NCBI GenBank assembly: GCA_965248265.1
Contig: CBDFJF010000002.1
Span: 1,824,001 to 1,888,000, forward strand
Length of the DNA stretch: 64,000 bases
Reading direction: 5' to 3'
Origin: Candidatus Latescibacterota bacterium
GTDB lineage: Bacteria; Latescibacterota; UBA2968; UBA8231
Both the position numbers and the translations under genes were made by a program. The notes beneath the pieces were generated by a model that was not told where the DNA came from, made no database searches, and worked only from the letters and a program-made list of their open reading frames with translations. Positions 3,244 through 49,186 of the stretch are shown here, one piece after another (position 1 is the first letter of the stretch; the number at the start of each line of letters is the position of its first letter).

Positions 3244-3526
3244 TGCTGGCGCACGTGTTTTCGATTGACGTCACCGAATGCCCCGACTGCGGGGGGCAGA
3301 TGACTCGTCGCACCGCTTGATCCGACAGGATCGATGTGCCTGAATCGTCCTTGAGGGTCGCAGAAGCGTCAAGAAAACCAGCCGCGGCCTGAAACCACGT
3401 CCGACAGTCCCGTCGAAGTCTACGAAACATCGTTCCACCCTTCACAAAAAACACCAGGTCCTACTCGACACCAGACACCCAAGCGATTTAGACTATCTAT
3501 AATGTCGCTTATCGTTCCTAACCGTC
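3241..3526 (+). mobile_element. IS91/ISCR-type remnant (transposase scrap, 3' tail and oriIS-like end A)
   Basis: 3244..3302 encodes LLAHVFSIDVTECPDCGGQM, matching the transposase C-terminus near 19630. It ends in ATAATGTCGCTTATCGTTCCTAACC (3499..3523). Confidence 0.75.
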
Positions 3527-3650
3527 CGCAGTGACGAGGGTTCGCTTGAAGTTCACGGCTTTGCTGAAGATTCTCTGTGACCGATGTGTTTACCTGCTCT
3601 GAAGTCTAGCGTAGTCTCCGTGCCCGCACAATCGCAAGGATCCGACTCAA

Positions 3651-5633
3651 ATGGCCGATGACCACGAGCCGGCCGGCGAGCTCTCCACGGACTCGCGCGG
3701 TGTCAGTCTGCGTTCCGTCGCCATCGGCGGAGCGGCAGCCCTCTTCATCGGGGTGTCGCTGCCTTACACGAACATGGTCATCAAGGGCGGCCTCCTCGCC
3801 CACAACCACAACGCGCCGGCAGCCCTGTTCGTGTTCTTTCTCTTCGTCGGCCTCGTGCACACGGCCACGGCCGCGATCAAGCGCGGCTGGTCTTACACGC
3901 GCTCGGAGCTCACGACCATTTACGTCATGGCCCTGGTGGCCACAGCGATTCCGACCATCGGCTTCTCCGAGTACCTCCTGCCCATCATCGCCGGTTTCAC
4001 CTACTACGCCACGCCTGAGAACAACTGGCAGGCAACCTTCCAACCCCTGCTGCCGAACTGGGCGGTACCACAGGACGATGTCGCCGTGCGCCATTTCTTC
4101 GAAGGCCTGCCCGACGGCCTGCCCCTGCCCTGGGGTGCCTGGCTCGAACCCCTGCTCTGGTGGGTCGTCTTCATCCTCGCCGTCTACTGGACGTCGGCCT
4201 GCTTGATGGTGATCGTGCGCCGGCAGTGGATGGAACGGGAGAAGCTCAACTATCCCCTCATCCAGGTCCCTCTGGAGATGATCCGCGACGAACCCGGCCG
4301 CCCCTCGTTGCTCAAGCCCTTCTTCCGGAATCCGGTGATGTGGATCGGCTTCGCCGTGCCCTTCCTGCTGGGATCCTACCATTCTCTGCACGAGTACTTC
4401 CCGGCGCTCCCGCGGGAGGGACCGCTGACGACGACCTACCAGCTTTTCCGTGGCACCACACCGCTCGTCGTCATGCTCAATTTCGGCCTCATCGGCTTCG
4501 CCTTTCTGCTGCGGCGCGATCTCGCTCTGGGTCTGTGGGTATTCTGTCTGCTCGCCGTGATCCAGCGCGGCACCTTCAACGTCCTCGGAATCGCCAGCAC
4601 CGAGACCCTGAGCCGCTTCGCCAACCACAGCGGCCCCTACCTGGCCCATCAGGCCATGGGGGCGATGACGGTGCTGGTGCTGTCCGTTCTCTGGCACGGA
4701 CGAGCCCATCTGCTCGACGTCTGGCGCAAGGCCATAGGCCGCGACAACGCCGTCGACGACAGTGACGAGATCCTCTCGTACCGCACCGCCGTATTCGGCC
4801 TGATCTTTGGCGTAACCGTCGTCGGCGTCTGGATGTGGCAAGCGGGACTGCCCGGGTGGCTCGTGCCCGTTTTTCTGTTCGCCGTGTTCGTCGTCTTCAT
4901 GGCGCTGACCCGTGCCGTAGTCGAGGGCGGCGTCGCCGTCATCCGCACGCCCCTTACTCCGGCCGACTTCGTCGTCTCCGGATTCGGCACGAACGCCGTC
5001 GGCGGCTTGGGCGTCGCTTCGCTGGGCCTGACGTACGTCTGGGCAGCCAACATCCGCATCCTCTTCATGCCGGCCTTCGCCAATCTCCTGCGCCTCGTTC
5101 ACGGCATCGACCGCGGCAAGTCGCGGTTGAAATGGGCCGTCGGACTGGCCGTGATCGCGGCCCTCAGCGGATCCCTGTGGAGTGTCTTCGTGCTCTCGTA
5201 CGAGCACGGCGGCGTCAACCTGCACGGCTTCTGGTTCATCGAGGTGCCGCAACTGGCCGGCAACTACATGGTGCAGTTCCTGGCCGACCCGATCCCACCC
5301 GATTGGGGGGGTTGGGGGTTCACTCTGATCGGCGGCCTCGTTCAGATGCTCCTCGTCGTCGCCCGCGCCCAGCTAGCCTGGTGGCCCCTGCACCCACTGG
5401 GCTTCGCCGTCAGCACCTTCTTCATCATGACCTACGTGTGGTTCAGCGTCATGATCGCCTGGGCAGTGAAATCTGCCGTACTCCGGTACGGCGGCCCGGC
5501 ACTCTACCGGAGGACGCGGCCGTTCTTCCTGGGTTTGATCCTCGGACAGATCTCGGTCTCAGGGTTGTGGCTCGTCATCGACCACTTCACCGGAATGGTG
5601 GGCAATGCGCCGATGGGGCAGTCGTTCGTGTAG
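3651..5633 (+). CDS. Polytopic membrane protein, DUF6785/DUF6784-like putative transporter
   Basis: 660 aa with many hydrophobic segments. Family motifs YYATPEN, RRQWMEREKLNYPL, DDSDEILSYR, WWPLHPLGFA and RPFFLGLILG are shared with three other loci. Confidence 0.88.
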   Translation: MADDHEPAGELSTDSRGVSLRSVAIGGAAALFIGVSLPYTNMVIKGGLLAHNHNAPAALFVFFLFVGLVHTATAAIKRGWSYTRSELTTIYVMALVATAIPTIGFSEYLLPIIAGFTYYATPENNWQATFQPLLPNWAVPQDDVAVRHFFEGLPDGLPLPWGAWLEPLLWWVVFILAVYWTSACLMVIVRRQWMEREKLNYPLIQVPLEMIRDEPGRPSLLKPFFRNPVMWIGFAVPFLLGSYHSLHEYFPALPREGPLTTTYQLFRGTTPLVVMLNFGLIGFAFLLRRDLALGLWVFCLLAVIQRGTFNVLGIASTETLSRFANHSGPYLAHQAMGAMTVLVLSVLWHGRAHLLDVWRKAIGRDNAVDDSDEILSYRTAVFGLIFGVTVVGVWMWQAGLPGWLVPVFLFAVFVVFMALTRAVVEGGVAVIRTPLTPADFVVSGFGTNAVGGLGVASLGLTYVWAANIRILFMPAFANLLRLVHGIDRGKSRLKWAVGLAVIAALSGSLWSVFVLSYEHGGVNLHGFWFIEVPQLAGNYMVQFLADPIPPDWGGWGFTLIGGLVQMLLVVARAQLAWWPLHPLGFAVSTFFIMTYVWFSVMIAWAVKSAVLRYGGPALYRRTRPFFLGLILGQISVSGLWLVIDHFTGMVGNAPMGQSFV

Positions 5634-5639
5634 CCCCAG

Positions 5640-5860
5640 CTCTAAGACCGAGACTGGCATGCCGTCGTAGGCGAGCTCGAATCCGCGACGCGCGAGTGTG
5701 TCCGCGGCGATGTCGTCATGCGGCGCTACATGGCCGACACTGATATGCGACCCGATTCTGCGCCGGCAAACCGCTTCCCATTCCACACGTTGCCGTCGGC
5801 GAAATCGAGACTGCGGCCGATCGCCTCGCTGCCGTAGACATCGAGCCCGCCGGGAATGCC
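5640..5860 (-). pseudogene. Possible degraded MBL-fold (PhnP-like) hydrolase fragments
   Basis: Short pieces LDVYGSEAI and APHDDIAADTLARRGFELAYDGMPV resemble PhnP-type segments. Weak resemblance only. Confidence 0.3.
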
Positions 5861-6497
5861 AAGGGCGTGCACGCCCAGAACTACCACATCTTCACACCTG
5901 CCGGAGAAGGGCGGGATTGGGTGTTCGTCTGGGGGTGTCAGCCGTGGATCGGCCAGTTGCCGTACGCCAACCACGCCTACTCCTACGATTTCGAGGAAGG
6001 CGAGAGCGGAAAACTCGTGCTAGAGTTCTGGATCACACCCTTCGACTACGCGCCGTACGATGGCCCGGAGCGGGCCGCTGTGTCCAAGCTGGAGGAAAAC
6101 AGCCTGATCGCCCTGTCCTGGGCGGTCCTCGACTTCGACGAGGACCACACGGAGTATGAGGGGTTCTGGAACCTTTCGCACGACGCACATGTACGACGAC
6201 GCCTCGAACCTGTGCGCCTTTCGCTTGATGCCGCTGGAGCCGGAGTACCTGAAACCGCTCGAGGCGCAATACTCCTATACGGTCGTCGACATGGATCGTC
6301 GGATGGTCGCCTTCACGGATCGATCCCGTGGTGAGATCACGTCGTGGTCGTGGGATTTCGGCGATGGCACTTCATCGGCCGAACAGCACCCGATTCACCA
6401 GTACGACAGACCGGGAGAATTCGTGGTCATCTTGAACGTCAAGGGGCAGCAGGGGAAAGCCCGGCGCGTCAAAGTGAATCAGGTGATGGTGAAGTGA
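5861..6497 (+). pseudogene. PKD-domain protein, 5'-truncated and frameshifted
   Basis: GVHAQNYHIFTPAG...FWNLSH, then a frame change near 6180 to TTHMYDDAS...SWSWDFGDGTSSAEQHPIHQY (PKD signature). Confidence 0.8.
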
Positions 6498-12986: not shown

Positions 12987-13706
12987 GCACACAACCTGCA
13001 AACAGGAAAGGGGAGTGCGACAGAGACAGGCGCAAGTGGATCGCGAGTTGCTCATGAGCCGGCACTATGCTGGCCGCCGCCATCCGCACACCCGCCTATC
13101 GCCGCCGCCAACCGGTCGGATCCTTGTTCTTGTGCATGAAGCGGACCAGGAGGGATGGTAACATCGGTATTTTGACGGCACCAACCCCGTTCAAGCGCTA
13201 TTCGACCGACGGGCCTCCTCCGGGATAGTCCACGGACGACCTGCGGAGGGCGCAGAGCATGGATTATCTGGCTCCGGCTGAAACCATGCCAGTTGCTGGC
13301 GCGCGTGTTTTCGATTGACGTTTCAGAATGCCCCGACTGCGGGGGGCAGATGAAAATAGTTGCTGCCCTGACGGACCCTTCCTCGATTCGGTCTTACCTC
13401 GAGGGCGTCGGCCTGCCGGCGCGACCGCCACCTATCGCACCGGCACGACCTTCGCCCCAGCACGAGCTCGAATTCGCGGCCTGACAGACGCATCAGACGG
13501 TTCGGTATATCTGAATCGCGCTCAGTATCTAAAATTCGCAGCAAACAGATCGATCGACAGCCGCCACTACTCCACCTGCCCGAGCTCAGCAACCGTTCTT
13601 AGCGCCATACCCCCACGACACACCACGAAAACGCGGTTCTTGACTGATTGACGGCGATCGACCACGACGACTTGACCATCGATAACGCTACTTATTTATC
13701 CTATAC
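12987..13706 (+). mobile_element. Non-autonomous IS91/ISCR derivative (5' end, foreign filler, transposase 3' end, oriIS B)
   Basis: 12987..13115 is near-identical to ~18306..18432. 13288..13484 encodes LLARVFSIDVSECPDCGG...ELEFAA*. It ends in ATAACGCTACTTATTTATCCTATAC. Confidence 0.82.
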
Positions 13707-13816
13707 TCCGTGCCATGATCCAGGCCGTCTATGGCGCGCAAAACGGGTGATCCAGGTTGGCCGCATATCAAGCGACCCATTTCCAGACCTCACGAAAAAT
13801 TTCGCGTGCAATGGTA

Positions 13817-14992
13817 TCACGAAGCAGAGGCGCATGGAGCAACCTGATCGTCCCCGTAGAACCAATCCACGGGTGAAACCCGGAGCCTCATTACATCGTG
13901 CACCTTCTCTCTAACTCCATCGATGATCTTGTACACTCGATGAACATAGACAAGGTAGGCGTTGTTTTGGATAAACTGGACGCGTGGCGCCCTGTTCATG
14001 TGAAATTCATCGGCACGCATCGTATCCACGTCCGCGGGACCTGGCGAGCCGATATGGCCGGGTGGGTCCAGGTTGACAATGCGCGAGATTCGCTCCTGTC
14101 CTGGCGACATCACGACGGTGCGGAACCGCTCCCACGTCTCGCCGCTATCTCTCGAAATAGCCGACGTAATGCGAGACCGATAGTAGCCTCCCTTGATCTC
14201 ATCAGGAGTCGCCTGATTCCATAGACACAACAGATCGCCCGTCGACGGCACGCGCGCCAGGTATATTTCTGAGTTGCTGTTCACTAAATCGTTCAGATGT
14301 ACGTGGCTCCAGGTGCGCCCGTCATCCGTGCTGTAGCTTTGGGCGATGCGTTGGTAATGAGTGCGCATGAACATGAGCAGCCGACCGTCTGTCGTCTCGG
14401 CCACGACAGGGACTTCGCAGTTACCCTGCCGCGCTCCGCCCTCGTCCCACACCCACAGGCTGTCGCGGGACTCGCTCCAGGAATCGCCCTCATCGTCCGA
14501 GTAAAAAGCGCTGCAGATGCCTATACCTACGTGCTGGCCGTTACCCGGCTGGGCGAACCAGTACTCGTTCGGCAGCACGAGTGTCCCGTCGCTGGTCTGT
14601 GCGAGCCAGGTGGCGTTGGTAGGCACATCGGACGGAGTAATGGGAACGGGTTCGGACCAAGTCTCGCCCTCGTTGAGAGATTTGCTGAAGAAGGCGTCGA
14701 GCCGCGTAAGAATACCGGTCGACCCTGGCTGCTGGACCTCGAACTTCAGGCCAATCGCTCCTGAATTCAGACGAACGAGATTCATGATGTACGCCCGCCT
14801 GGGCTCATCGCCCGCGATCGGCCTGCCCCCATGACCGACAAGCCTACCCGCGTCCTGCCACGTCCGTCCGCCATCGGACGACTCCATCTTTGTGATAGAC
14901 CGCCGGTCCAGGCCAAGGAGTCGCCCGTCGCTCAGCCCGATGGGCTCAACAAAGCTCGAAGCCAGGTCAACTTCGAACATCGATTCGGACAT
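13817..14992 (-). CDS. Sialidase-family (Asp-box/BNR) protein
   Basis: Start moved to MSESMFE, with GGAGG RBS. Asp-boxes SSDGGRTW, SLNEGETW, SDDEGDSW, STDDGRTW and SRDSGETW. Confidence 0.85.
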   Translation of the reverse strand: MSESMFEVDLASSFVEPIGLSDGRLLGLDRRSITKMESSDGGRTWQDAGRLVGHGGRPIAGDEPRRAYIMNLVRLNSGAIGLKFEVQQPGSTGILTRLDAFFSKSLNEGETWSEPVPITPSDVPTNATWLAQTSDGTLVLPNEYWFAQPGNGQHVGIGICSAFYSDDEGDSWSESRDSLWVWDEGGARQGNCEVPVVAETTDGRLLMFMRTHYQRIAQSYSTDDGRTWSHVHLNDLVNSNSEIYLARVPSTGDLLCLWNQATPDEIKGGYYRSRITSAISRDSGETWERFRTVVMSPGQERISRIVNLDPPGHIGSPGPADVDTMRADEFHMNRAPRVQFIQNNAYLVYVHRVYKIIDGVREKVHDVMRLRVSPVDWFYGDDQVAPCASAS

Positions 14993-15006
14993 AGGATCCT
15001 CCAAGC

Positions 15007-15352
15007 GCTTAGTGAGGATAAGATAGGTTATCGTTACTAAGTCAGGCGGCGTTTTTTGCAATTTGCCGCATTTTGCCAGCATTGATGGCGGTTCTTTGTG
15101 GGGTGACGGTCGATCGACGAAAGCTGAGGCTTCGAACAGTGTCCTCGGAGCCGCTCTGAGCGAAACGGGCGTTTTCAGCGACAGATCAGGGCACAGCGGT
15201 GACGTTGCTGTGACCGCGAATCGATTTCAGGCGGCGAAATCCAGTTCAGGTTGGGGGTGGGGGCGTGCGGGTGCGATCGGCGGTGCCCGTGATGGCAGGC
15301 CGACGCCTTCCAGGTAGCGCGCAATGGAGCGGGGCTCGGTAAGGGCCGCAAC
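15007..15352 (-). mobile_element. IS91/ISCR-type remnant (transposase 3' end, tail, oriIS C)
   Basis: 15352..15227 encodes VAALTEPRSIARYLEGVGLPSRAPPIAPARPHPQPELDFAA*. It ends in ATAACCTATCTTATCCTCACTAAGC. Confidence 0.8.
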
Positions 15353-15402
15353 TCCCTGCTCACAGCTGTTCACCGCGCGGCACCATTCCCAGCCTCAAGG
15401 TT

Positions 15403-15610
15403 CATCATCATGATCCACTGTTTACCCAGGTCTATCAACGGCAGATCGATCGCGGTAAGCACCACCTCGTTGCGCTCACCCACGTCGCCAACAAGATGCT
15501 CCACGTCGTTTTCTCTGTGATGAAAAACAACCGACCTTACACACCTATCCTCAACTGACCGGAGACCCGATATTTGCCCACGATTGGTGTTGACATGTTA
15601 CCGCTTGTCT
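15403..15610 (+). mobile_element. IS110-family remnant (transposase C-terminus and probable right end)
   Basis: HDPLFTQVYQRQIDRGKHHLVALTHVANKMLHVVFSVMKNNRPY...* (stop 15558), followed by TTGACATGTTACCGCTTGTCT. Confidence 0.7.
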
Positions 15611-15638
15611 ATGCTCACCGCTTATTAAGGAATACCCC

Positions 15639-17230: not shown

Positions 17231-17248
17231 GGTCAGGACAGCGACGCC

Positions 17249-18296: not shown

Positions 18297-20059
18297 GCAG
18301 GTGTTGCACAACCTGCGAACAGGAAAGGGGAGTGCGACAGAGACAGGCGCAAGTGGATCGCGAGTTGCTCATGAGCCGGCACTATGCTGGCCGCCGCCAT
18401 CCGCACACCCGCCTATCGCCGCCGCCAACCGGAGAAGGAGCCCCTCTACCAGGTCCTCGCCGAGCATCTCGAGACCTTTCTGGAGCAAGCGCGCACATCC
18501 GAGCATCGGTTGCCGTTGCAGGTAGAACAGGAGATGCGGGCTTACCTGGAGTGCGGACTGCTCCCATACGGGTTCATGCGGGTACAGTGTGAGGGCTGTG
18601 GGCACGACCGGGTCGTCGCGTTCTCCTGCAAAAAGAGGGGATTCTGCACCTCGTGTGCCGGCCGGCGCATGGCGGACACGGCGGCTCGCCTGGTCGACCA
18701 CGTGCTGCCCCGTGCGCCGGTGCGGCAGTTCGTGCTCAGTTTCCCCTACGAGATTCGCTACCACCTGGCCTGGGACGGCGAACTGATCGCCGCTGTACTG
18801 AGGGTGTTCCAGCGCGTAGTCGGAGGTTGGTACCGGCGCCAGGCGCGGGCGCTGGGGCACAGCGACGGGCGCTGTGGCTCGGTCACCTTCGTGCAGCGAT
18901 TCGGGTCGTCTTTGAACGTCAACCCCCACATCCACGTGCTTTTTCTGGATGGGGTCTACGTCGACGGGGACGATGGGCCGGAGTTCATCGCCGCACCGAA
19001 ACTGATTGACGACGATGTCCAGCAGATTATCGAAACTACGGCCCACCGCCTCATCCGGCTATGCACAAAGCGCGGCCTGCTCGACGATTCCCAGGTCGAT
19101 ACCCTGGCCGACGAAGAGCCCGTGCTCGCCGCCATCACCGCCGCCTCAGTGCGCTGCGTCATCGCCACTGGCGAGCGTGCCGGACAGCGGCTTCGACGGG
19201 TGCTCCGGGACCCGGCCACCGGGGTGCGCACGGCGCCCCTGTGCTTCGCCTCGCGCGGATTCTCTCTGCACGCGGCCACGCGGATCGCGTCCGAGGATCG
19301 GCTTGGCCTCGAGAAATTGTGTCGCTATGTTGCTCGCCCGGCTCTGGCGGCGGGCCGATTGCGCATCCTCGACGACGGCCAGCTCGCCTTCACTCTCAAG
19401 ACGCCCTGGTCAAACGGCACTACCCGCCTGCTACTGTCCCCCCATGAACTGCTCGAAAAGCTGGCCGCCCTCGTACCGCCGCCACGGCTCAACCTGATCC
19501 GGTACCACGGGTGTTTGGCGCCCAACGCGCGAGACCGTGACCGGATCGTGCCCGGCGGCGACGACGAGCCCTCGATGACGGGCGAATCTGACTCACCACC
19601 GTGTCCTCACCGCCTGTCCTGGTGCCAACTCCTGGCGCGCGTTTTTTCCGTTGACGTTACAGAGTGCCCTGACTGCGGGGGCCGGATGAAGATAGTTGCC
19701 GCCTTGACGGACCCAACCTCGATCCGGACCTACCTGAAAGGTGTCGGCCTGCCGGCGCGGCCGCCTCCGATCGCGCCGGCACGACCCGCCCCACAGCCCG
19801 AGCTGGAAACGCTGCACACAGCGTCCGCCGCCTGAGCGGATGCGCCTGGCGTGTTCAGAACGGATCGCCACGCCCACACGGGCCGGTTTTGTGACCACGA
19901 ACGGACCGACAGGCCTCATCGACCCGTTGGCAGGCCCTGATCCACCCCAATCCATTCGCCCATCGCACCCGGCACCCAATCCACCGTTCACATTCCCTCT
20001 CGACACCATCCCGCCGCCAGCTAAACTAATCATAATGGTGCTTTATCGGTCCTATACGT
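18297..20059 (+). mobile_element. IS91/ISCR-type rolling-circle element, apparently complete
   Basis: Hairpin GCAGGTGTTGCACAACCTGC at 18297..18316 (terIS candidate), then the transposase. The 3' end GTGCTTTATCGGTCCTATACGT resembles ISCR oriIS ends. Left boundary uncertain. Confidence 0.8.
18384..19835 (+). CDS. IS91-family HUH transposase with N-terminal Zn-binding domain
   Basis: CEGC...FSCKKRGFCTSC, HUH motif NPHIH, GFSLHA, EKLCRYVARP, LIRYHG and C-terminal CPDCGG. Confidence 0.95.
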   Translation: MLAAAIRTPAYRRRQPEKEPLYQVLAEHLETFLEQARTSEHRLPLQVEQEMRAYLECGLLPYGFMRVQCEGCGHDRVVAFSCKKRGFCTSCAGRRMADTAARLVDHVLPRAPVRQFVLSFPYEIRYHLAWDGELIAAVLRVFQRVVGGWYRRQARALGHSDGRCGSVTFVQRFGSSLNVNPHIHVLFLDGVYVDGDDGPEFIAAPKLIDDDVQQIIETTAHRLIRLCTKRGLLDDSQVDTLADEEPVLAAITAASVRCVIATGERAGQRLRRVLRDPATGVRTAPLCFASRGFSLHAATRIASEDRLGLEKLCRYVARPALAAGRLRILDDGQLAFTLKTPWSNGTTRLLLSPHELLEKLAALVPPPRLNLIRYHGCLAPNARDRDRIVPGGDDEPSMTGESDSPPCPHRLSWCQLLARVFSVDVTECPDCGGRMKIVAALTDPTSIRTYLKGVGLPARPPPIAPARPAPQPELETLHTASAA

Positions 20060-20252
20060 AGAAGCCGCGCGAGGCAAAGCACAGCCGTCCCGTGCGTATT
20101 CCCGTAGCAGGATCCCGCAGTACCCGTCGCAATCGCTGACCGGCGCGCTCTCCGGTGGCGATGAGACCGCGCACGGAGGCTGAAGTGATTGCGGCCAGCA
20201 CGGGCTCCTGGTCGTTGAGGGGATCCGTTTGGGTGTTATCGAGCAGGCCGCG
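20058..20252 (-). pseudogene. Inverted internal fragment of a related IS91 transposase
   Basis: RGLLDNTQTDPLNDQEPVLAAITSASVRGLIATGERAGQRLRRVLRDPATGIRTGRLCFASRGF, diverged from the intact copy. Confidence 0.85.
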
Positions 20253-20253
20253 A

Positions 20254-20363
20254 CAGAGCTGACGAAGTGGGAATGCTGGAGCCAGCGGCTCGGAGACACA
20301 CAGGTCGAGGACATCTTCCGGAACAACGCGGTGAGGTTGTTCAGGCCGTACCTTGGCTCTTGA
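20254..20363 (+). pseudogene. 3' fragment of an amidohydrolase-like gene
   Basis: ...LGDTQVEDIFRNNAVRLFRPYLGS* matches a typical amidohydrolase C-terminal motif. Confidence 0.5.
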
Positions 20364-20803: not shown

Positions 20804-21180
20804 ATGAATGATCTGACTGACGCGTACAGCTGGAGCTGTGTGACCTCGGAGGTGCCGTGGTCGCCTCGCGACGGGGCACAGCTCGTCTCCTTCCAGGATA
20901 AGCTCTTCCTGCTGGGTGGCTGGAATCAGTACGCCAGCGATAGGCCCGACCTCGCTGGCGATGGCGTCGGCTCATTTGAGGCGGACGTGTGCTCGGAGGT
21001 GTGGTGCTCGGATGATGATGGCGCTAGCTGGTCGCTGGCGGCCACTGCACCGTGGAGCGGCAGGCACATGCACGGAGCCGTCGTGCACGACGATCACATC
21101 TGGATCGTCGGGGCAGAGAGCGGGACGGATGACGACGTGTGGAAGTCGAAGGACGGCCTGAAATGGGAGCTGGTACAGCA
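20804..21180 (+). pseudogene. Kelch-like repeat protein, 3'-truncated
   Basis: Repeats PWSPRDG...LFLLGGW and APWSGRHMH...DVWKSKDG. Homology stops at ~21180, where an IS91-like tail begins. Confidence 0.75.
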
Positions 21181-21270
21181 ATCCGACCCATTCGCACCCT
21201 TCGAAACGCCTCTCGACCAACCCAGATTCTCGTTGTACACTACTGATAACCCTTCTTATCGGCCCTATCC
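21181..21270 (+). mobile_element. IS91/ISCR tail remnant with oriIS E
   Basis: CCATTCGC...CTCTCGAC as in 19951..20004, then ATAACCCTTCTTATCGGCCCTATCC. Confidence 0.7.
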
Positions 21271-21322
21271 TTTGATTTGGATCGCTTCCAGGTTAGCAGG
21301 ATCGATCGAAGGAACTAACCAG

Positions 21323-21599
21323 CTAGCTGAATTGGAACGCGTAAAGGTCGACGTCACGCATGACGAAACGTAGTCGAATAGGTTTTCCGGCTAGTTCGCT
21401 TATGTCTGATTTGCCTTGCCAGGTTACAACTCTGTTGATTTCGTTGGTTGTGTGAATGCGGTCGCAATCTTCGAGTCTGTAGCCAGCTGATCCAGAGAGA
21501 GTGATAGCTCCCAGCTCATCCAGGATCTCCACCCGAAGTTCTCCTACCGCTGACGTGTCCACGTTCAACATTAGCTCGTTTCCATTGAATCTCAGTACT
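21323..21599 (-). pseudogene. 3' fragment of a beta-propeller GH-like gene
   Basis: VLRFNGNELMLNVDTSAVGELRVEILD...IRLRFVMRDVDLYAFQFS* abuts the IS3 left end. Confidence 0.85.
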
Positions 21600-21650
21600 T
21601 GAATCGCCCCGGGGTTGCCGGAGGCTCCATTTCTTGAGAGGATTGGAGTC

Positions 21651-22882
<1,232 letters not shown>

Positions 22883-31365: not shown

Positions 31366-31379
31366 GCGGCCCCCGCATG

Positions 31380-31415
31380 AAAAAACCTGCAGGCTCAGTA
31401 AGAGACCTGCAGGTT
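31380..31415 (-). terminator. Intrinsic terminator (cassette copy 2)
   Basis: Same hairpin and T-run as 2920..2955. Confidence 0.8.
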
Positions 31416-31466
31416 CAATAGACACGCCGGCGCACGAGAAGGCACGCCTTGGTAAGATCAGGGCGA

Positions 31467-32015
31467 TCAGGGTGTAGCGGCTTTTACCTGTCCCCAGCTT
31501 TCGTTCTCAACCCCCGTTGGTACCGGCATAGGAATCGCCAGAACCACGGGCGATTGCAGCTCTATTCCTTCCGTTTCACCGAGAGCCTGTACGCCCCACC
31601 TCGTCTCCAACCTGTCGCGGGGCTCGACAAGGGCCTCGAGCACTTCAACCTCCGGGGTGGCCTCAACCCTGGTCCAAGGCATCATTTCGATGCTCCGTTC
31701 ATCCTCCACCACGACGATGTCTCCAGGGACGTCGGCACTGGCCTCCAGCCCAACCGTCTTCTCCCGATAGATGCGATATGCGTTGGCCGCGTCGACCCGG
31801 TTCCAGCGGACGAGAATGGAAGTAGCGTCAAGAGTGCTGACCGTCACTTCAGCCGGCGGAGTTATGGCGTTTGTGGAGACAATCGCGTCGACTCCAGGCA
31901 ATATGAGAATAGCTTCGTCGGCAGTGGCCCCGTCGTGATAGAGACACTCGCCCTCGCCTGCCCATACCGCAGCAGCCAGGACGAAGCAGGCTGCAACTGC
32001 AAGTAGAATTTTCAT
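31467..32015 (-). CDS. Secreted 182-aa SWGQVK-motif protein, copy 2
   Basis: Identical to 2320..2868 except for one V-to-A change. Confidence 0.85.
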   Translation of the reverse strand: MKILLAVAACFVLAAAVWAGEGECLYHDGATADEAILILPGVDAIVSTNAITPPAEVTVSTLDATSILVRWNRVDAANAYRIYREKTVGLEASADVPGDIVVVEDERSIEMMPWTRVEATPEVEVLEALVEPRDRLETRWGVQALGETEGIELQSPVVLAIPMPVPTGVENESWGQVKAATP

Positions 32016-32146
32016 AACCGCCTCCTCTGGAAGATGTTGCGAACCTACGTCAAAAGCCGTCGATTCTCAAGTGAAATTCTGAAAAGACGAAACGTGAAGA
32101 TCACTCGGAGACGACTCGGGCACAGGCGTCCACGTCAGCCCCAGGC

Positions 32147-32178
32147 GACGGTTAGGAACGATAAGCGACATTATAGAT
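32147..32178 (-). mobile_element. Minimal oriIS-like end F
   Basis: 32 bp identical to 3495..3526 (ATCTATAATGTCGCTTATCGTTCCTAACCGTC). Confidence 0.75.
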
Positions 32179-32313
32179 GTTACCGTCGATGCGGGGAATC
32201 ATGTCATGGGGGAACTGGAAGATCTTGAACTCAGTGTCGGTGCGTTGCAGGGCCTGACTCGATGAGGTGGTCAACAACCCGGCCATCAGTGCTATACAAA
32301 CTTGCTTGATCAT
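32179..32313 (-). pseudogene. 5' fragment of a secreted (probably PKD-family) gene cut at oriIS F
   Basis: MIKQVCIALMAGLLTTSSSQALQRTDTEFKIFQFPHDMIPRIDGN runs directly into the ori motif. Confidence 0.7.
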
Positions 32314-36785: not shown

Positions 36786-38750
36786 TCAGACCTGGGTCAG
36801 GAAGCTGCCAGTGCTGCCGGTGATGTAGTCGACGATCAGGAACAGTCCGGCGGCGACGATCTCACCCAGGATCAGTCCCAAAAAGAGGGGCCGCAGGTTG
36901 CGGTACAGGCGCACGCCTCCGTAGCGCAGGATCAGCAGCTTCAGGATCCAGGCCAGCAGCGCGCTGCAGAAGATGTGGCCCGTCTTCCAGTTGGCGGCGA
37001 TGGCGAACCCGAGCGGGCTGAGCGGCCACCATACGAACTGGTGGCGCGCCCACATGAGCGCTGACATCACGCCCGCGCCGATGCCCATGAACTGCAAGGC
37101 GTCCCAGCGCGGTCCTTCGGGTTCGGCCGTGATGCGCGGCGTCATGTCCATGGGTCCGAAATGGGTGGACTGCCATGAGAAGAACAGGGAATTGAGATTG
37201 ATGCCGCCGTGCTCGTACGCCATGACCAGGGTGACGTAGGAGGAGCCGGCCAGGGTGACGAGGACGGCCACGACAATGGCCCAGAACAGGCGGCGTTTCG
37301 GGCCGTGGATGACCTCACTCATCTTCAGTCCGTTGGCGACCGAGGACATTACGAAGGAGCGAACCTCGGCGTGCCAGCCGTAGGAGAAACCGAGCGCCAT
37401 CAGCCCCGGGGCGCCGATGTTGGCGGTGCCAACTGTCGAGATCACGAAGGTCGAGGTCATCAAGGGCGGACGCATGGTCGGGATGCCGCCCTCGGCCACC
37501 ACCCGGGTCAATCCCAGGAACAGGACCATGGCGCCGAAGACGAACAGCACCGCCACCAGGAAGGGCAGACCGATCATCCACAGCCAGATGGCGACGGCCA
37601 GCAGGCTGCCCAGGAGCCCAAAAAACGCCTGCCGATAGGAGAGGATCTCGCCGCTGTCATCGACCTCCTGTAATCCCCTCACGGCCTTTGCCACTACATC
37701 GCGCAGATGCCGCCGCGCCACCCACAGACCGACGAGGACGAAGGCGATCATCGCCCCGAAGCCCTGGTGGGCCAGGAAGGGATCTTCCCTTGAGTAGAAG
37801 TCGACCCGCTGGGTGCTGAGTATGCCGACCTCGTTGAAGATGCCATGCTGCAGCCTGGCGAGGATGTAGAAGAACCAGATCGAGGCCAGGATGTCGAGGT
37901 TGACGAAATAGAAGAACCCGGTCCAGGGTGGGCTGAAGTAGAAGCTGAGCCTGGTGTTGCCGAGCAGGGGCAGGCCCACGGCGCGCTCGAAGCCCGGAAA
38001 CTCCGGGTAGTAGGAGTGCACGCCGTTGATGGCCAGCAGGAGAAACGAGAAAGCAAACCCCAACCACATCGCTTTGTTGGTGAAGAACGAGCGGCCAACG
38101 GCACCGCCATCCTCGCGCTGGAGCATCTCCATCGGTACCTGCACCAGGGGGTAGGCGAGCTTCTCGTGGTCGACCCACTGCTTGCGCAGGATGACCATGG
38201 TGCAGATCATGGCGAACCCGAGGGCGAGGAAGAAGCCGAACCACAAGCTCAGAGGCACGACCCAGGCTTCCCACGGGATCGAGGCACCCTCGGGCAGCCC
38301 CTCGAAGAAGTAGCGCGCCACCTCGTTGCCCCGCGGGATCATCCACTCGGGTATGTACTGGTTGTAAACCCCGTCCCAGTCGTTCTCGGGTGTGGCGTAG
38401 TAGGTCGACCCGAGGAGGCAGGGGATCATGAACTGGGTGAAGCCCATACCGGGAATGCAGCAGGCCACCACCAGCATGATGTAGATGGTGACCAGCTCAG
38501 AACGGGTCAACGCCAACCAGCGGTGGAGGAGGCCGACAACGCCGTTGGCCAGGACGAGGAGGAAGATGAAGAAGAGGGCAGCCGGGGTGCTGAAGTTCAG
38601 GGTCAGGTAGGAGCCCATGATCGCGTTCGTCGCGTAGGTATCGCATACGCTGAGAACGAGAGACAGCGCTGCCCCGATCAGGATGCCCCGCAGCGGTATC
38701 CCCTGCAGATCCGGCCCGTGTCGTCGGTCCTCCCGAGGAGGCGCCGTCAT
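36786..38750 (-). CDS. DUF6785/DUF6784-like membrane protein
   Basis: 654 aa with the same motifs as 3651..5633. Heads a co-oriented cluster with two GH-like genes. Confidence 0.88.
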   Translation of the reverse strand: MTAPPREDRRHGPDLQGIPLRGILIGAALSLVLSVCDTYATNAIMGSYLTLNFSTPAALFFIFLLVLANGVVGLLHRWLALTRSELVTIYIMLVVACCIPGMGFTQFMIPCLLGSTYYATPENDWDGVYNQYIPEWMIPRGNEVARYFFEGLPEGASIPWEAWVVPLSLWFGFFLALGFAMICTMVILRKQWVDHEKLAYPLVQVPMEMLQREDGGAVGRSFFTNKAMWLGFAFSFLLLAINGVHSYYPEFPGFERAVGLPLLGNTRLSFYFSPPWTGFFYFVNLDILASIWFFYILARLQHGIFNEVGILSTQRVDFYSREDPFLAHQGFGAMIAFVLVGLWVARRHLRDVVAKAVRGLQEVDDSGEILSYRQAFFGLLGSLLAVAIWLWMIGLPFLVAVLFVFGAMVLFLGLTRVVAEGGIPTMRPPLMTSTFVISTVGTANIGAPGLMALGFSYGWHAEVRSFVMSSVANGLKMSEVIHGPKRRLFWAIVVAVLVTLAGSSYVTLVMAYEHGGINLNSLFFSWQSTHFGPMDMTPRITAEPEGPRWDALQFMGIGAGVMSALMWARHQFVWWPLSPLGFAIAANWKTGHIFCSALLAWILKLLILRYGGVRLYRNLRPLFLGLILGEIVAAGLFLIVDYITGSTGSFLTQV

Positions 38751-45300: not shown

Positions 45301-46527
45301 ATTCCCATCGGCCGGACCGTGCGCAAGCTCTACGTGCTCGGACACGTGGTGCGGGCCCGCTCGAGCTGGAAGGAAACGGGTGCGCACTACCACCTCAACT
45401 ACGCCGACGGCACTACACGACGCATCGACCTGGACAACCTGACGGACTACGAAAACGTGTTCCAGTGGGGGTTCGCCTCGCGCAGTTTGTTCGCCCGCAA
45501 CTGGAAGGTGCAGGGCGGCTGGGACGGCGGCGCGCCGATCCTGAACAACTACCCGATCCAATGTGAGGCGAAACCGCTCGATGAGCTCGTCATTGAGGAC
45601 GCCGGACAGGGCATCGGCTTCATGATCCTGGCGGTCACGGCCGAGGTCGAAGGTGCCGTGCCGGAAGAGCACGTAATCGACCTGTCTTTCGCCGAACCGG
45701 GTGCGTCGAGGAATCTGTGGCGCGAAGGATCAGTTTCCGGCTGGCTCAACGTTGAGGGGGAACTTACAGAAAGTAGCGGCGTGTTGTCTGACGGCACGGC
45801 GACGTACAGGACCATGCTGGACGATGGCCAGTACGACGCAGAACTGGAATTGTCCGGCGTCGGCTGGGGTGGACCCTTCAACGTCCGCGCAAATGGACGC
45901 ATGGTCACTCGTGGTTACGTGGCCAGTAGCGGAGGCGTTCCCGGCGTCACCAGCCGTCCCGAGCGCATCCGCTTCCCGGTGACCGTTTCCGGAGGCAAGC
46001 TGGACCTCACGCTGGAAGCCGACCGCACCGTTGGCAACTGGTGGCATCCCAAGCGGCTGAGCGGGGGCGCATGGCAGCTGACGCACATGCGTGTGTTTGC
46101 TTCGCAGGAGCGGGTGCCAGCGGCACGAGAGGAGATCATCCATGGGTGGCTCGAGCCGGACCTGACCGTGATGCCGCTGCCACCGGACGAGGTCGGTCGC
46201 CTCCCGGACGCACGCCTGCGCACCTGTATCCGCAGCAAAGATCCCTCTGGTACCTTCCGTGCCGACTTCCCGCCGGGCGACTACGAAGTCGAGCTGACCT
46301 TCGCCCTCCGCGGCGCCGGGACGCGTGAAGGGCCGGTGAAGATGGACGTGACACTGCAGGGCAAGCGTGTTCTCACGGATTTCGACGGCGGCGCATACGA
46401 CAGGCCGGTTGTGCAGACCTACCCTGTGCGCATTGAACCCGACGGTCACCTGGAGGTCAAGCTCGAGAGCGCGAGTGGTGACAACGAATGGGGGATCAGC
46501 GCGTTGGTCGTGCGGCCGATCAGCTGA
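42310..46527 (+). CDS. ~1400-aa secreted protein, exo-rhamnogalacturonan-lyase (PL26/YetA)-like core with C-terminal lectin/malectin-like domains
   Basis: Signal-like LTIAHVAIVFSALIVWCLSHGVAAA, TSGVPL...LARWPDESVKWLLLDF, WFNND and GGGRRHDQQHWG. Start codon uncertain. Confidence 0.75.
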   Translation: MTIAHVAIVFSALIVWCLSHGVAAAETSIALRATELAGADRDGEIVTSGVPLSMGMLNDVSQSRLLDAEGNGVPFIGTVLARWPDESVKWLLLDFRASVAARQTARFTLDCGGGSSRAKLNGPLVSVSEGDRFIEVTTGPLRFRVSRLPRYTFLDGVWFDVDGDGAFSAAESVVAAGEGDSRLEVETTPPGPPQEENWLLDAAGGPRDRYEAVVTEARVEFANPLRAVVLVRGQYRDDGGGSIGPFWTRYTAWAGATTIGVEHFFAFDADVEEAFLRSLSLGLRFAGDGPLRATFGLGEGESAAPDTTLAETALVEVMPDRFYHLVPLSVDRRVRYQVVGKRADGDDQVLKEGVEAAGWVRLEGDRATTTIALRDFPRLHPKEIRVEPGEKSLRYFLWPERGDKVLDLRRRYQGQRVEDHYDTGEYDPAGRGFGKTHQLLIDFSVNTMSDAAASADAAAAALARRADEPLRAFCTPEHYASCDVWNRFHTVDTDRFPQTEAMIRLGIEWALRLPRTFHWDGIVDWGDTFFQGYEGAPHGQVADVPKTSWVSRGYDGWFNNDCNVAHDLMILFLRSADDRLFQYWERMVQHVMDVDTIHAAQDSTEVGGGRRHDQQHWGASYTGYGTAAVEAGELYYLTGSLWAREMLIKYADWYMVGGGAEWETRLPCLVLAWEATGDERYMRYIERPEMRDDVYGLAMGMHGGIDDPHFRTNGVEVGVDFLYRATGDAQWLDHLTTAAHRMIEGNPGNKYGRSLVAKAYLATSDPEVLDWLRRLLVVADPYGRVGLAEFFQQNRIPDDLSGLPFGELSELFKTSAMEGVRKFIYTYRYFPYVMAALTEAGLDEGQMELIDFTLDRRGMGQYHLRGADVITPADARYESVPIVTVANTDPLADPFSLYAQWQRHPLQPGEIGFDFGERQVSIDAGETEPGYLPVRTATAYPYKAPIPRAAEHDGTNLIGLPFGTTWHINSVPFDLPDPASVTDGHTMLVVGKGERVVIPIGRTVRKLYVLGHVVRARSSWKETGAHYHLNYADGTTRRIDLDNLTDYENVFQWGFASRSLFARNWKVQGGWDGGAPILNNYPIQCEAKPLDELVIEDAGQGIGFMILAVTAEVEGAVPEEHVIDLSFAEPGASRNLWREGSVSGWLNVEGELTESSGVLSDGTATYRTMLDDGQYDAELELSGVGWGGPFNVRANGRMVTRGYVASSGGVPGVTSRPERIRFPVTVSGGKLDLTLEADRTVGNWWHPKRLSGGAWQLTHMRVFASQERVPAAREEIIHGWLEPDLTVMPLPPDEVGRLPDARLRTCIRSKDPSGTFRADFPPGDYEVELTFALRGAGTREGPVKMDVTLQGKRVLTDFDGGAYDRPVVQTYPVRIEPDGHLEVKLESASGDNEWGISALVVRPIS

Positions 46528-47533
46528 CGGCAGCAATCCACTCTTGAAAGCTGTCGTCGTCGACGTTGCGCCCACTGACGACGATGACGACATCGCCCTC
46601 CCCATCCTTCACGTCCACCGCTCCGGTCAGGGCGGCCGCCACCGCGATGGCCCCTGACGGCTCGGTGCGCAGGCCGTGCTGCTGGTACAGCCAGCGCATG
46701 GCCGCCTGCGTATCCGTATCGGGCACAGACACCGCCGACGGCACGAGTTCGCGCAGGATCGGCCAGTTGTGCTCACCGACGTCATACGAGAGCAGCCCGT
46801 CGCAGATACTCTCTGGCTTTTCGATCGAGATTCGCTCGGCCGCCGCCAGTGATTGGCAGTAGTCGTCGGCGCCCGCGGGTTCGACGCCGACGATCGCGGC
46901 CTGTGGAAATCCGTCGGCGATGGCGAGCGCGTGACCGGCCATCAGCCCGCCGCCGCTGACTTGACAGATGAACTGCGAAACATCTCGATCCTGGCGGCGC
47001 AGCTCTTCGACAATCTCGAGACCGCCGACACCGTTGCCGGCGATCACGTGATCGTCATCATAAGGCGAGGCCTGGACCGCGCTCTCTTCCTCGGCAATCT
47101 CCCGCGTCAGTTTATCCCGTTGACCGGTCAGATGATCGGTAGCGATGTCGAAGGTGCGGATCTCGGCGCCGAACGACCGCGTGCGTTCGAACTTCACTCT
47201 GGGAGCGGTGTCCGGCATGACGATGATGACCCGCTTGCCGTAGCGCATGCCGGCGAAAGCGATCCCCGAGGCGAAGTTGCCCGACGAGTGCGCGGCGACC
47301 GGCTTGTCGCCGATCCGTTCGAGGTTGTTCGCCATCCAGTTAAGCGCGCCGAGAAGCTTGAACGAGCCAACGGGCGTCCAGCCGTAGTCCTTCAGCCACA
47401 CCTGGCGACCTTCTCCGAGTTCCAGCTCTCGCTCCAGGGCGTAGGAGCGCACGAGCGGAGCGGGAGACACGTGCCGGCGTATGACTTCCTGCGCTGTGCG
47501 GACGTCGTCGATGGTGGCTATGCGAATGGACAT
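46520..47533 (-). CDS. Threonine/serine dehydratase-like PLP enzyme
   Basis: GSFKL, SSGNFA, SGGGL, EPSGA and SGRNVD. Confidence 0.9.
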   Translation of the reverse strand: MSIRIATIDDVRTAQEVIRRHVSPAPLVRSYALERELELGEGRQVWLKDYGWTPVGSFKLLGALNWMANNLERIGDKPVAAHSSGNFASGIAFAGMRYGKRVIIVMPDTAPRVKFERTRSFGAEIRTFDIATDHLTGQRDKLTREIAEEESAVQASPYDDDHVIAGNGVGGLEIVEELRRQDRDVSQFICQVSGGGLMAGHALAIADGFPQAAIVGVEPAGADDYCQSLAAAERISIEKPESICDGLLSYDVGEHNWPILRELVPSAVSVPDTDTQAAMRWLYQQHGLRTEPSGAIAVAAALTGAVDVKDGEGDVVIVVSGRNVDDDSFQEWIAAVS

Positions 47534-47560
47534 GATCGTGGCTCCACTGGAGGTCAGACT

Positions 47561-48988
47561 TCAGAACGTGTCCTTGGGATTGGTCAGCGGGCACCACCGA
47601 GCCTCGAACAGCGAGTCGAGCAGCGCCTGAAGGGCTCTCGGTGATCCGATCTTTCGCAACGCCAATCCACCGTAGAAGCGGTTGTAGCGGTTCTCGTCAG
47701 ACAACAGCGGCAGGATGTCGCGGACCGCTGAGTCAGCCTCAGGGCCAATCTTCGCCAGCGTCAGCGCGGCGTTGCGACGCACCCGATAGTCACTGTCGCC
47801 AACCGCTTCGCTCATCGCCGTGACGAGATCGCCGCCGTACACGCCGATCATGCCGAGCCCCTCGGCCGCGTTGCGCCGGACCCACCAGTGCTCGTCACGC
47901 ACAGCACACATCAACGCCGGGACGGCCTCCTCGGCCTCTGGCCCCATGCGGGCCAGGGCACCGGCGGAGACAGCGCGCACCCACCAGTGTTCATCGCGCA
48001 TCCCGTCTGTCAGGGCCGGAATCGCAGCCGACCCCACCGCCGTCAACGCCGTGGCCGCCGGCCCGGGAGTCGGGTTCGTTCCGTGGGCGTTGTCCGGGGT
48101 TTTGGCGGTGGTCTCCTCGATCGCAGCCAGTGTCTGTGCGCGCATCGCTGCAACCAGCTCGTGAACCGCAGGCGCGCCAGTGGCGGCCAACTGGTAAGCT
48201 TCTTCGAGCCGAGCAGCCTCGGAATCGCCGTTTGCTGCGCTCGCAGCCGCAACGCCCTCGGCTCCATCACGCCGGCTCCTCCCACGAAGCCAATCCCAGA
48301 TATCGCGGGACACTTCCGGATTGGGGGTGTCTATCCAAGGCGCCCAGGCGGTGCTCCGGTGGTCCCACGCGGGCGCGATCGGCTCCCGCATGCGCGCGAA
48401 CTGGAACTTGAGCATGTAGCGATTGCGGTCACTGACATTCTGAATCGCCCTGTGCCACGAGTCGAAATGAATGAGGGCCACGGTGCCGGCGGGGCCACAG
48501 ATGCCAGCCTCTTCCTCGCGTGTTTGAGTGGGATCCGGATCGCTGATCGTGCGGTAGAACTGCGTCCGCGGCAGCACTCCGGACGGCCCCATGTCGGGGG
48601 TGGTGTCCTGGGGGTAGTAGAAGGCCAGGAGCCAGTAGAAACGCGGATGCCGCAGGTTGTGGTCGTAAACGTAACAGTCCTTGTGCCACTTCTGGCCTTT
48701 GCTGCCGGGCAGGTTGAGGTGACAGTGTCGATGCGGATTCAAGTTGTAGCCCGGTCCCAACAGGCTGGTCAGGGCGCCAGCCACAGCAGGGTGCTCGAAC
48801 ACCCGCCCGAGGTCGGGAATACGCGGCAGGATGTTGTTGCCGGGGTTGCCTTCGTCCTCGAACACTTCGTCGATCTGTCGGCAGACACCTTCGTGGAAGG
48901 AGGGCCGGTAGTCGGCGCGAACGGTCAGGTACCCGTTTGCGATGAATTGCTGTACCTGCTCGTCCGTTAACAGTTTCAACTGGCTCAA
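47561..48988 (-). CDS. PhyH-family dioxygenase fused to HEAT/PBS repeats
   Basis: TTG start with GGAGG RBS. Motifs QKWHKD and WHRA, plus repeats DEHWWVRxxAAxxL. Confidence 0.88.
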   Translation of the reverse strand: MSQLKLLTDEQVQQFIANGYLTVRADYRPSFHEGVCRQIDEVFEDEGNPGNNILPRIPDLGRVFEHPAVAGALTSLLGPGYNLNPHRHCHLNLPGSKGQKWHKDCYVYDHNLRHPRFYWLLAFYYPQDTTPDMGPSGVLPRTQFYRTISDPDPTQTREEEAGICGPAGTVALIHFDSWHRAIQNVSDRNRYMLKFQFARMREPIAPAWDHRSTAWAPWIDTPNPEVSRDIWDWLRGRSRRDGAEGVAAASAANGDSEAARLEEAYQLAATGAPAVHELVAAMRAQTLAAIEETTAKTPDNAHGTNPTPGPAATALTAVGSAAIPALTDGMRDEHWWVRAVSAGALARMGPEAEEAVPALMCAVRDEHWWVRRNAAEGLGMIGVYGGDLVTAMSEAVGDSDYRVRRNAALTLAKIGPEADSAVRDILPLLSDENRYNRFYGGLALRKIGSPRALQALLDSLFEARWCPLTNPKDTF

Positions 48989-49021
48989 GGTGCACCTCCG
49001 GAGTAGGCCGCCGCTCGCCGC

Positions 49022-49089
49022 CTACATGTTACTGAGAAACCGCCCCCGTTCGCCAATCAGTGAAAAGACCATCCCCCACACCCCGTTCA
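49022..49089 (-). pseudogene. 68-bp 3' tail of a DUF6785-like gene
   Basis: NGVWGMVFSLIGERGRFLSNM* compared with NGVWGIIFSLIGERGRILSNM* at 51140. Confidence 0.85.
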
Positions 49090-49186
49090 ATCAACAAACT
49101 CCAAGCCAAACTGACAAGGCGAGCGTCGGCCTGTCCGAAATCACCACTTGACTGACTACCGATAACCTGTTTTATAATCACTATCC
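49090..49186 (+). mobile_element. IS91/ISCR tail remnant with oriIS-like end G
   Basis: TTGACTGACTACCG-ATAACCTGTTTTATAATCACTATCC. Confidence 0.62.

Follow-up and report, generated by a model that had tools for sequence, protein, structure and literature searches.

The DNA analyzed here, called the window below, is a stretch of 64,000 nucleotides (nt) from a Candidatus Latescibacterota bacterium (assembly GCA_965248265.1). It corresponds to C2:1824001-1888000, where C1 and C2 are the two contigs of the 7.32-Mb genome (~60% G+C). A short motif of the pattern ATAA-N6/7-TTAT-N4-MCTAWNC recurs along the window, next to transposase sequences and to genes for a sulfatase, a BNR_2 sialidase-like protein and DUF6785/DUF6784 membrane proteins. 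Insertion sequences of the IS91 family carry a single transposase of the HUH/tyrosine type, which is thought to work by rolling circle from one end, oriIS, towards the other, terIS. The window holds one intact element of this kind, three stubs that retain C-terminal scraps of a transposase and three stubs of ~35-100 nt (Table 1). The seven motif copies are very probably the oriIS ends of one intact and six broken ISCR-like IS91-family copies, and most of them are best read as debris.

Table 1. Features of the window; positions are counted from the first base of the window, and a dot stands for no strand.
Feature	Position	Strand	Basis or remark
739-bp cassette, copy 1	2231..2969	+	5' leader, open reading frame (ORF) of 182 amino acids (aa), terminator-like hairpin
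Stub: C-terminal scrap (aa ~410-464) and ~225-nt oriIS region ending at motif 3499-3523	3225..3525	+	tblastn
Mosaic remnant	12990..13708	+	tblastn, DNA alignments
Second-subfamily stub, 353 bp, end ...CACTAAGCGC	15005..15357	-	tblastn, DNA alignment
Intact ISCR-like IS91-family element, ~1.75 kb	18308..20059	+	transposase homology, border alignments
Internal fragment (aa ~220-293) of another ISCR-like transposase	20061..20276	-	tblastn, blastn; directly after intact element
oriIS stub of ~99 nt without transposase sequence	21172..21272	+	DNA alignments
739-bp cassette, copy 2	31366..32104	-	downstream of 35-nt remnant
Terminal remnant of ~35 nt, 32 bp identical to 3495-3526	32147..32182	-	DNA alignment
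Repeat copy 1	48662..49089	.	ends where stub begins
oriIS stub of ~97 nt	49090..49188	+	46 nt before sulfatase start
Sulfatase gene, candidate captured cargo	49233..50819	+	Pfam Sulfatase 2.6e-62; bracketed by repeats
Repeat copy 2	50872..51207	.	97% identical over 236 bp, two internal deletions

A Complete ISCR-Like Element Ends in the Motif

The intact element consists of a 76-nt left region, the transposase gene (18384-19835) and a 222-nt 3' region that closes with the motif at 20032-20057; the gene is the sole intact mobile gene adjoining a motif site. In a Pfam search only the domains Zn_Tnp_IS91 (PF14319, 3.6e-19) and Y2_Tnp (PF04986, 2.7e-28) were found in the 483-aa product, and no helicase domain. 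The first-pass annotation had called the system Helitron-like. This holds for the HUH enzyme class, which is common to both, but not for the Rep endonuclease fused to a helicase and the eukaryotic host of Helitrons, neither of which applies to the window transposase.

In a comparison with plasmid records, more than 90% of the transposase aligns with the transposases of ISCR1 and ISVsa3 (ISCR2), at 39-41% identity, and an alignment that includes a third IS91-family transposase gives 38-42%. H182, H184 and R314-Y315 are invariant in an alignment with ISCR1, ISVsa3 and two other relatives, and we take the H-x-H and tyrosine columns to be the catalytic residues. The best NCBIfam model is 'ISCR element clade Ia' with 378 bits (cut-off 925), and the NCBIfam IS91 equivalog model gives 106 bits (cut-off 125). 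Judged by these scores the transposase is a relative of both curated models and not a member of either; it was placed in a separate clade because 378 bits lies well under the cut-off of 925.

Both borders of the element are defined by alignments. On the left a paralogue at C1:1258xxx aligns up to 18307, and a 99.2% identical copy of the first 126 bp (12990-13115) begins at the same point. On the right 99.4% identical copies of the last 161 bp (C2:2691338 and C2:2692496) stop two bases past the motif. No match that could represent terminal inverted repeats was found between the first and last 80 nt of the element at E<=50, and a target-site duplication is absent at this copy, which is flanked by ...GGTGTTGC and GTAGAAGC....

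The plasmid copies of ISCR1, ISVsa3 and the third IS91-family element end in ...TTTAT/TTTGA-N..-CCTATAC, 230, 233 and 242 nt past the stop codon. Of the last 26 bases of the intact element, 20 are the same as in the ISCR1 end, and for the seven sites the agreement ranges from 13 to 20 of 26. The two bases after the motif are subfamily-dependent (GT 15, GC 11, TC 6, AT 5, AC 4, TT 1; n=42 matches in the genome).

Homology Between Copies Halts at the Motif

All seven motif sites claimed in the first-pass annotation were recovered by exact pattern matching, at 3499-3523(+), 13682-13706(+), 15007-15031(-), 20032-20057(+), 21246-21270(+), 32150-32174(-) and 49162-49186(+), and the window contains no further match. 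Each of 100 dinucleotide-preserving shuffles gave 0 matches, a test that is weak alone as the pattern was written after the sites had been seen. Therefore, independent support was sought in the rest of the genome.

Genome-wide the pattern matches 42 times, and 41 of these matches lie on C2, clustered in the range of 0.85-3.92 Mb. With a profile that covers the last 82 nt and was derived from 33 distinct ends, 74 ends were detected at E<=0.01, four of them on C1. The region C2:2.6-2.8 Mb is a hot spot of ISCR-like ends, with 22 of the 74 in a single 200-kb bin. In the flanks of the pattern matches many copies have common sequence upstream and diverge straight after the motif; eight copies are identical or 1-2 bases apart over the 45 nt upstream that were shown. 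On the upstream side this homology extends for tens to hundreds of nt. Of 502 alignments of one end region with another, 383 terminate in the interval -8..+5 nt around the end, and three cross it. Because of the transposase family, the likeness of the ends to those of ISCR1 and ISVsa3 and the alignments that halt at the motif, we regard the motif as the oriIS terminus, of which it would form the terminal ~25 nt (plus two bases). The designation oriIS-like is thus borne out by transposase homology, position, likeness to ISCR ends and sharp homology borders. The genome-wide profile scan suggested in the same annotation yielded the 74 ends; a strain-level break exactly at one end (13706/13707, see below) was seen in contigs of other runs.

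A transcription-factor operator or an ordinary promoter element, unrelated to mobile DNA, would also explain why ATAA and TTAT form a short inverted repeat and why many copies lie upstream of genes. However, the copies stand where transposase homology or its 3' region ends on the 3' side, are homologous to the ISCR1/ISVsa3 ends, are clustered on one contig (41/42) and share homology that extends upstream and halts at the motif, and we regard an operator as hardly credible.

At least two end architectures and several subfamilies occur in the genome, in total ~70 oriIS ends and six full-length transposase loci. Common to the ends are the boxes TCGACA..., then TAAACT/TAGACT or TTGACT, then ATAA-N6/7-TTAT-N4-CCTAWNC, with spacers that vary across subfamilies. 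The earlier description of kept arms with a varying spacer needs to be qualified: sites 3499 and 32150 share a single 32-bp sequence without any difference and so do not represent independent variants, and the ATAA arm is AAAA in ISCR1, ISVsa3 and the third IS91-family end. A hairpin formed by the ATAA/TTAT arms was considered and rejected, as RNAalifold gave 0 pairs on the 33 distinct ends and single folds had z values from -2.3 to +2.2. The same folding, with no consensus pairing on these 33 oriIS ends and single folds no stabler than those of shuffles, does not support subterminal palindromes. The terIS side was looked at in one copy only.

The same end architecture is found behind an 87%-identical transposase on a 2.6-kb contig of a metagenome-assembled genome (MAG), and twice in a Latescibacterota MAG, 2166 nt apart and co-oriented. 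The nearest named relatives of the transposase come from MAGs labelled Chloroflexota (the 2.6-kb contig), Latescibacterota and Planctomycetota. In a similarity search with RpoB of the genome, clusters from Bacteroidota, Verrucomicrobiota and Planctomycetota scored equally. Of the 8000 candidates scored for the transposase, 2232 protein clusters are similar to it at E<=1e-20, and many of these are located on short metagenome contigs.

The oriIS Side Is Preferentially Kept

With five transposase proteins of the genome as queries, one of which is a shortened ORF call so that one or two loci may be misclassified, 50 transposase-like loci were counted, of which 6 are full-length, 36 retain only the C-terminal part, 6 only an internal part and 2 only the N-terminal part. 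Approximately 30 more ends are without any transposase sequence. Truncation is thus directional, with the oriIS side strongly preferentially kept, because 36 C-terminal-only loci stand against 2 N-terminal-only loci.

Undirected decay unrelated to how the elements transpose, through random deletions and nested insertions, would be in line with left borders that lie at arbitrary sequences and with the insertion of IS3, IS481 and IS110 types nearby. However, it should leave both sides equally often, and with two terIS-side against 36 oriIS-side fragments, in addition to the transposase-less stubs, we hold it to be highly improbable. The bias fits a process that is anchored at oriIS. Transposition is said to start at this end according to two sources (PMC13181058; PMC3575428).

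Remnant Ends in the Window

As had been claimed, one motif copy ends the intact element and three follow 3' scraps of a transposase (3225-3389, 13224-13472 and 15352-15239). The stub of the first scrap has 70-75% DNA matches to other ends, every one halting at the motif, and faces a DUF6785 gene at 3651. To its left, contigs of the public runs X1, X6 and X7 join 3028 to 3200, which makes 3029-3199 a 171-nt length variant between the 739-bp cassette and the scrap.

The mosaic remnant is composed of a 126-bp copy of the left end (99.2%), 174 bp that also occur at C2:1147473-1147646, the scrap, and a 3' region with the motif 13682-13706. In contigs of X5, X6 and X7, three runs that stem from three studies, agreement with the window begins only at 13707, directly past this motif, with 514 unlike bases to the left. 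The second-subfamily stub has 99.7% identical counterparts in an array of seven members on the same strand, which lies at a distance of 690 kb (C2:1134270-1156254). Its end at 15007 lies 14 nt before the ATG (14992) of the BNR_2 sialidase-like gene, an ATG that is preceded by GGAGGA, and the junction of stub and gene, together with the gene, is nearly unchanged in contigs of X5, X6 and X7. Within 13707-15004 the sialidase-like gene is bracketed by two inward-pointing oriIS ends, 13706 on the left and 15005 on the right, and the right junction of this bracket is common to contigs of three other runs whereas the left one is not.

The three sites without transposase sequence were said to truncate the gene on their upstream side, and this was found for each of them. 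The left border at 21172 cuts a Kelch-like gene after ~125 of 394 codons, and a paralogous 335-bp segment (C2:2775323-2774990, 94%) starts 1-2 nt past the motif at 21246. The ~35-nt remnant cuts a gene after ~46 codons, the paralogue of which is C2:1799251-1800315. The stub at 49090 adjoins the last 68 nt of a minus-strand DUF6785/DUF6784 gene.

Four of the seven ends face an intact co-oriented gene, as proposed, with starts at 3651, 14992, 32015 and 49233, i.e., 127, 14, 134 and 46 nt past the motif. The other three point at a convergent gene's 3' end, at a transposase fragment in inverted orientation and at an opposite-strand ORF disrupted by IS3.

A Sulfatase Gene Bracketed by a Duplicated Host Segment

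Two copies of one host segment bracket the stub 49090-49188 and the sulfatase gene 49233-50819. Copy 1 (48662..49089) contains the 5' part of a minus-strand HEAT/PhyH gene, intergenic DNA and the last 68 nt of the DUF6785/DUF6784 gene. Copy 2 runs on rightward into the remaining DUF6784 tail (51208-51351), which belongs to a gene that an IS481-type element to the right splits further. The order of an ISCR1-type unit is present, namely host segment, oriIS stub, cargo and second copy of the host segment; between 47561 and 51350 no transposase homology was found, and a complete ISCR gene and a class 1 integron context are both lacking. A genome-wide screen gave two other brackets of this kind, neither of which contains a stub.

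The layout suggests an actual capture of the sulfatase gene, the only such case among the neighbouring genes. As the ISCR1 model predicts, one-ended rolling-circle transposition would have produced a circle that then entered by homologous recombination. A comparison with 20 relatives, which belong to other genera and have 63-74% DNA identity in genes, showed the HEAT/PhyH gene in 8/8 relatives examined and a DUF6785 or PALP neighbour in 0/8; one has a distant sulfatase 4.4 kb away.

The 739-bp cassette is a second duplicated unit. Its copies are 99.6% identical, one located 43 nt past the 35-nt remnant and the other ~530 nt before the 3499 end, and the 182-aa ORF has no Pfam or NCBIfam match. 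A unitig of run X1 corresponds exactly to 2231-2969, at ~2x the depth of its neighbours.

Genes Beside the Ends

The orientation of genes downstream of the ends was determined with a crude gene caller of our own. At 46 of 68 ends the first gene downstream has the same orientation as the end (random 0.51, standard deviation 0.06), and 33 of 68 have a co-oriented start in the range -130..+300 nt (random mean 9.7, maximum 18, 200 trials). The orientation bias is real and moderate, and weaker than that of ISCR1, for which 84% of downstream genes are given as co-oriented in an excerpt of PMC6218425. Stubs also occur as same-orientation pairs and arrays with 1-7 kb of unrelated genes between them.

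When ends per 200-kb bin were compared with gene families, rho was 0.006 for sulfatases, 0.22 for DUF6785 and -0.05 for GFO, and a weak 0.35 for PhyH (p 0.03, uncorrected). Nowhere in the genome was a duplicate found that comprises both a stub and the DNA downstream of it, save for three alignments that are explained by IS110 insertion. A Pfam scan of the 29 co-oriented ORFs outside the window, out of the 33, gave a mixed set: nine have no Pfam match, two are IS110 transposases and at least three are 5'-truncated gene pieces, and the others include a TonB receptor, a sugar dehydratase, GH2, PhyH and a sigma-54 activator.

These data bear on the idea that an active, diverse system of HUH transposons captures, assembles and reshuffles catabolic genes, with the downstream genes as its cargo. 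It would account for the sulfatase unit with its duplicated flank, for the two 99.6% identical cassette copies beside an identical 32-bp end, for the break at 13706/13707 in three other runs and for the same-orientation stub pairs and arrays with their orientation bias, and IS91-family circles mobilize catabolic genes in a sphingomonad according to the part of PMC5737581 that we cite. However, the ends are not associated with sulfatase, DUF6785 or GFO genes and only weakly with PhyH, no stub was co-duplicated with downstream DNA, the downstream ORFs are functionally mixed and include truncated pieces and IS110 transposases, and a full transposase is kept at only 6 of ~50 loci. Moreover, the standard model, as far as it is given in passages of PMC13181058 and PMC3575428, moves DNA on the terIS side and not DNA past oriIS. 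A shuffling system of this kind is possible but in our opinion unlikely. Of the reshuffling of catabolic genes put forward in the first-pass annotation a local part stands, i.e., the sulfatase unit, the cassette, the break at 13706/13707 and the orientation bias; against it as a general scheme speak the weak or missing family association, the lack of co-duplication, the mixed downstream ORFs and the three of seven window ends that face no intact co-oriented gene. There is no evidence for an organized or catabolism-specific assembly system.

Stubs might also be kept as mobile outward promoters, that is as domesticated regulatory modules rather than debris. A consensus scan found promoter-like hexamers at three of the seven sites (TCGACA-18-TAGACT at 3465-3494, TCGACA-16-TAAACT at 20000-20027 and TCGATA-17-TATACT at 13679-13707), and ISCR1 provides a precedent with two proven outward promoters in its oriIS region (PMC6218425, in part). 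The TCGACA/TTGACT and TAAACT/TAGACT boxes are conserved across subfamilies with variable spacers, 33/68 ends lie just upstream of a co-oriented start, and the 15007 end is only 14 nt from an ATG with GGAGGA in front. The conserved subterminal boxes resemble outward sigma-70 promoters, and the stubs may drive the gene they face. However, the boxes could equally be binding sites of the transposase, 22/68 ends face the wrong way and several face gene fragments. We therefore consider a role as domesticated promoter modules rather improbable.

The neighbourhood as a whole has the character of a glycan-utilization region. Three paralogues of the DUF6785/DUF6784 membrane protein are present within the 64 kb (3651-5633, 36786-38750 and 52646-54502), with 33 loci genome-wide, alongside many PhyH, BNR_2-like and GFO/IDH/MocA genes. 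A literature search for IS91/ISCR together with sulfatase or polysaccharide genes gave an apparent match that concerned 'IS911'.

Other insertion sequences are found near the ends. An IS110-family element of ~1.54 kb (DEDD_Tnp_IS110 and Transposase_20) at C2:2705446, C2:2725785 and C2:2769672 has one end inside the oriIS core of two end architectures (...CCACT/CGTATAATAGGTGC and ...GTCCT/CGTATAATAGGTGC, the slash marking the junction), and thus appears to target the oriIS motif itself. In the window a 206-bp IS110 end piece (15409-15614) adjoins the 15007 stub. An IS3-family element (21587-22770) has ~11 genome copies and an IS481-family element (51352-52671) ~8 that are 100% identical over the compared part, in addition to diverged ones; the latter copy splits a DUF6785/DUF6784 gene.

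Discussion

The seven motifs are thus best read as oriIS ends of ISCR-like IS91-family copies. The six broken copies of the window would have lost the terIS side to differing extents, with 353 nt down to ~35 nt left. Transposition would start at oriIS, and incomplete or irregular termination would leave oriIS-proximal pieces; alternatively, later rearrangements anchored at oriIS could have left the stubs. As such losses leave oriIS-proximal pieces, each end would mark a seam where unrelated DNA was joined.

Several observations weigh against this interpretation or limit it. The left borders of the stubs follow no rule across subfamilies, and the three short stubs have flanks that do not join up with one another; these stubs are therefore not simple insertions of copies that were born truncated. 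GTTC stands next to oriIS in only 2 of 42 cases, which gives little sign of a fixed tetranucleotide of the IS91 type. A joint from 20057 to 18308 was not among the 15 of 73 joints listed from contigs of four public runs. The layout around the sulfatase could also come from a segmental duplication followed by an insertion, and no empty site is identifiable among the relatives, which as members of other genera are all too distant. The orientation counts carry the crudeness of the gene caller. Finally, the three promoter calls at stubs are three of seven calls in 19 kb, where 4.4 are expected by chance, and the scan gave no call at 15007, 21246, 32150 and 49162.

A pseudo-terIS rule, with stubs starting at GT or GTTC, was tried for the left borders. 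Four junctions of the window share GT microhomology with the host paralogue, but 0/5 borders of the second subfamily begin with GT, and the rule was dropped.

The closest known systems are ISCR1 and ISCR2/ISVsa3. In common with them the window element has the Zn_Tnp_IS91 and Y2_Tnp domains at 38-42% identity with the H-x-H and single RY columns, a 3' non-coding region of ~220-240 nt ending in TTAT-N4/5-CCTATAC, no inverted repeats, and truncated copies that keep the oriIS end. The DNA past oriIS is variable and often consists of co-oriented genes, as also stated for ISCR in the cited part of PMC6218425. The differences are the clade Ia score of 378 versus 925 bits, the left arm ATAA instead of AAAA, and the host, an environmental, marine-type genome and not a plasmid of beta- or gammaproteobacteria. 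In addition, the neighbours are glycan-degradation and miscellaneous genes, not resistance genes, and many subfamilies occur in one genome. The ISCR mechanism itself is described as not experimentally proven in a passage of PMC13393415.

Complex integrons of class 1 (the 3'-conserved segment [3'-CS], ISCR1, variable region, second partial 3'-CS) have the same order as the sulfatase unit, but here a stub of ~97 nt is all there is, and both a transposase gene and an integron are missing. A circle-plus-recombination model for ISCR1-linked units is reportedly due to Toleman et al. in 2006. That ISCR1 is followed by the variable region, with duplications of the 3'-CS, is stated in an extract of PMC3575428. 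For the IS91 family, a section of PMC13181058 describes a rolling-circle HUH transposase, distinct oriIS and terIS, one-ended transposition that moves adjacent DNA, and no target duplication. IS91, IS801 and IS1294 thus resemble the window element in the rolling-circle type of HUH transposase, the unlike ends and the lack of target duplication; they differ in that the window element scores 106 versus 125 bits and has apparently no fixed GTTC/CTTG next to the end and, by folding, no supported subterminal palindrome. In Sphingobium herbicidovorans, catabolic genes move as circles with cIS91sdpA, whose oriIS lies 167 bp past the gene (PMC5737581, as excerpted). This corresponds to the reshuffling idea discussed above, but there the circular form was sequenced, whereas the elements of the window are known from sequence alone. 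All in all, the elements belong to a known kind of mobile DNA, and no new kind of system is revealed.

A more far-reaching possibility is that the stubs without a transposase are still live, a few master transposases acting on them in trans, with each stub being both an origin and a site of insertion or termination. We consider this distinctly improbable. If true, such stubs would build same-orientation stub-gene-stub arrays and set outward promoters before genes. A marine glycan degrader would then possess a cassette platform comparable to an integron but operated by an HUH enzyme, and the sulfatase unit and the 739-bp cassette would be recent products of it.

To our knowledge, ISCR elements have been studied almost solely as carriers of resistance genes in clinical proteobacteria. 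With ~70 natural oriIS ends, six full transposase loci, a 36:2 bias and one tidy sulfatase unit, the present genome is a convenient natural data set, useful for asking how ISCR-like elements terminate and whether stubs remain substrates, and transposases of this clade are common in metagenomes.

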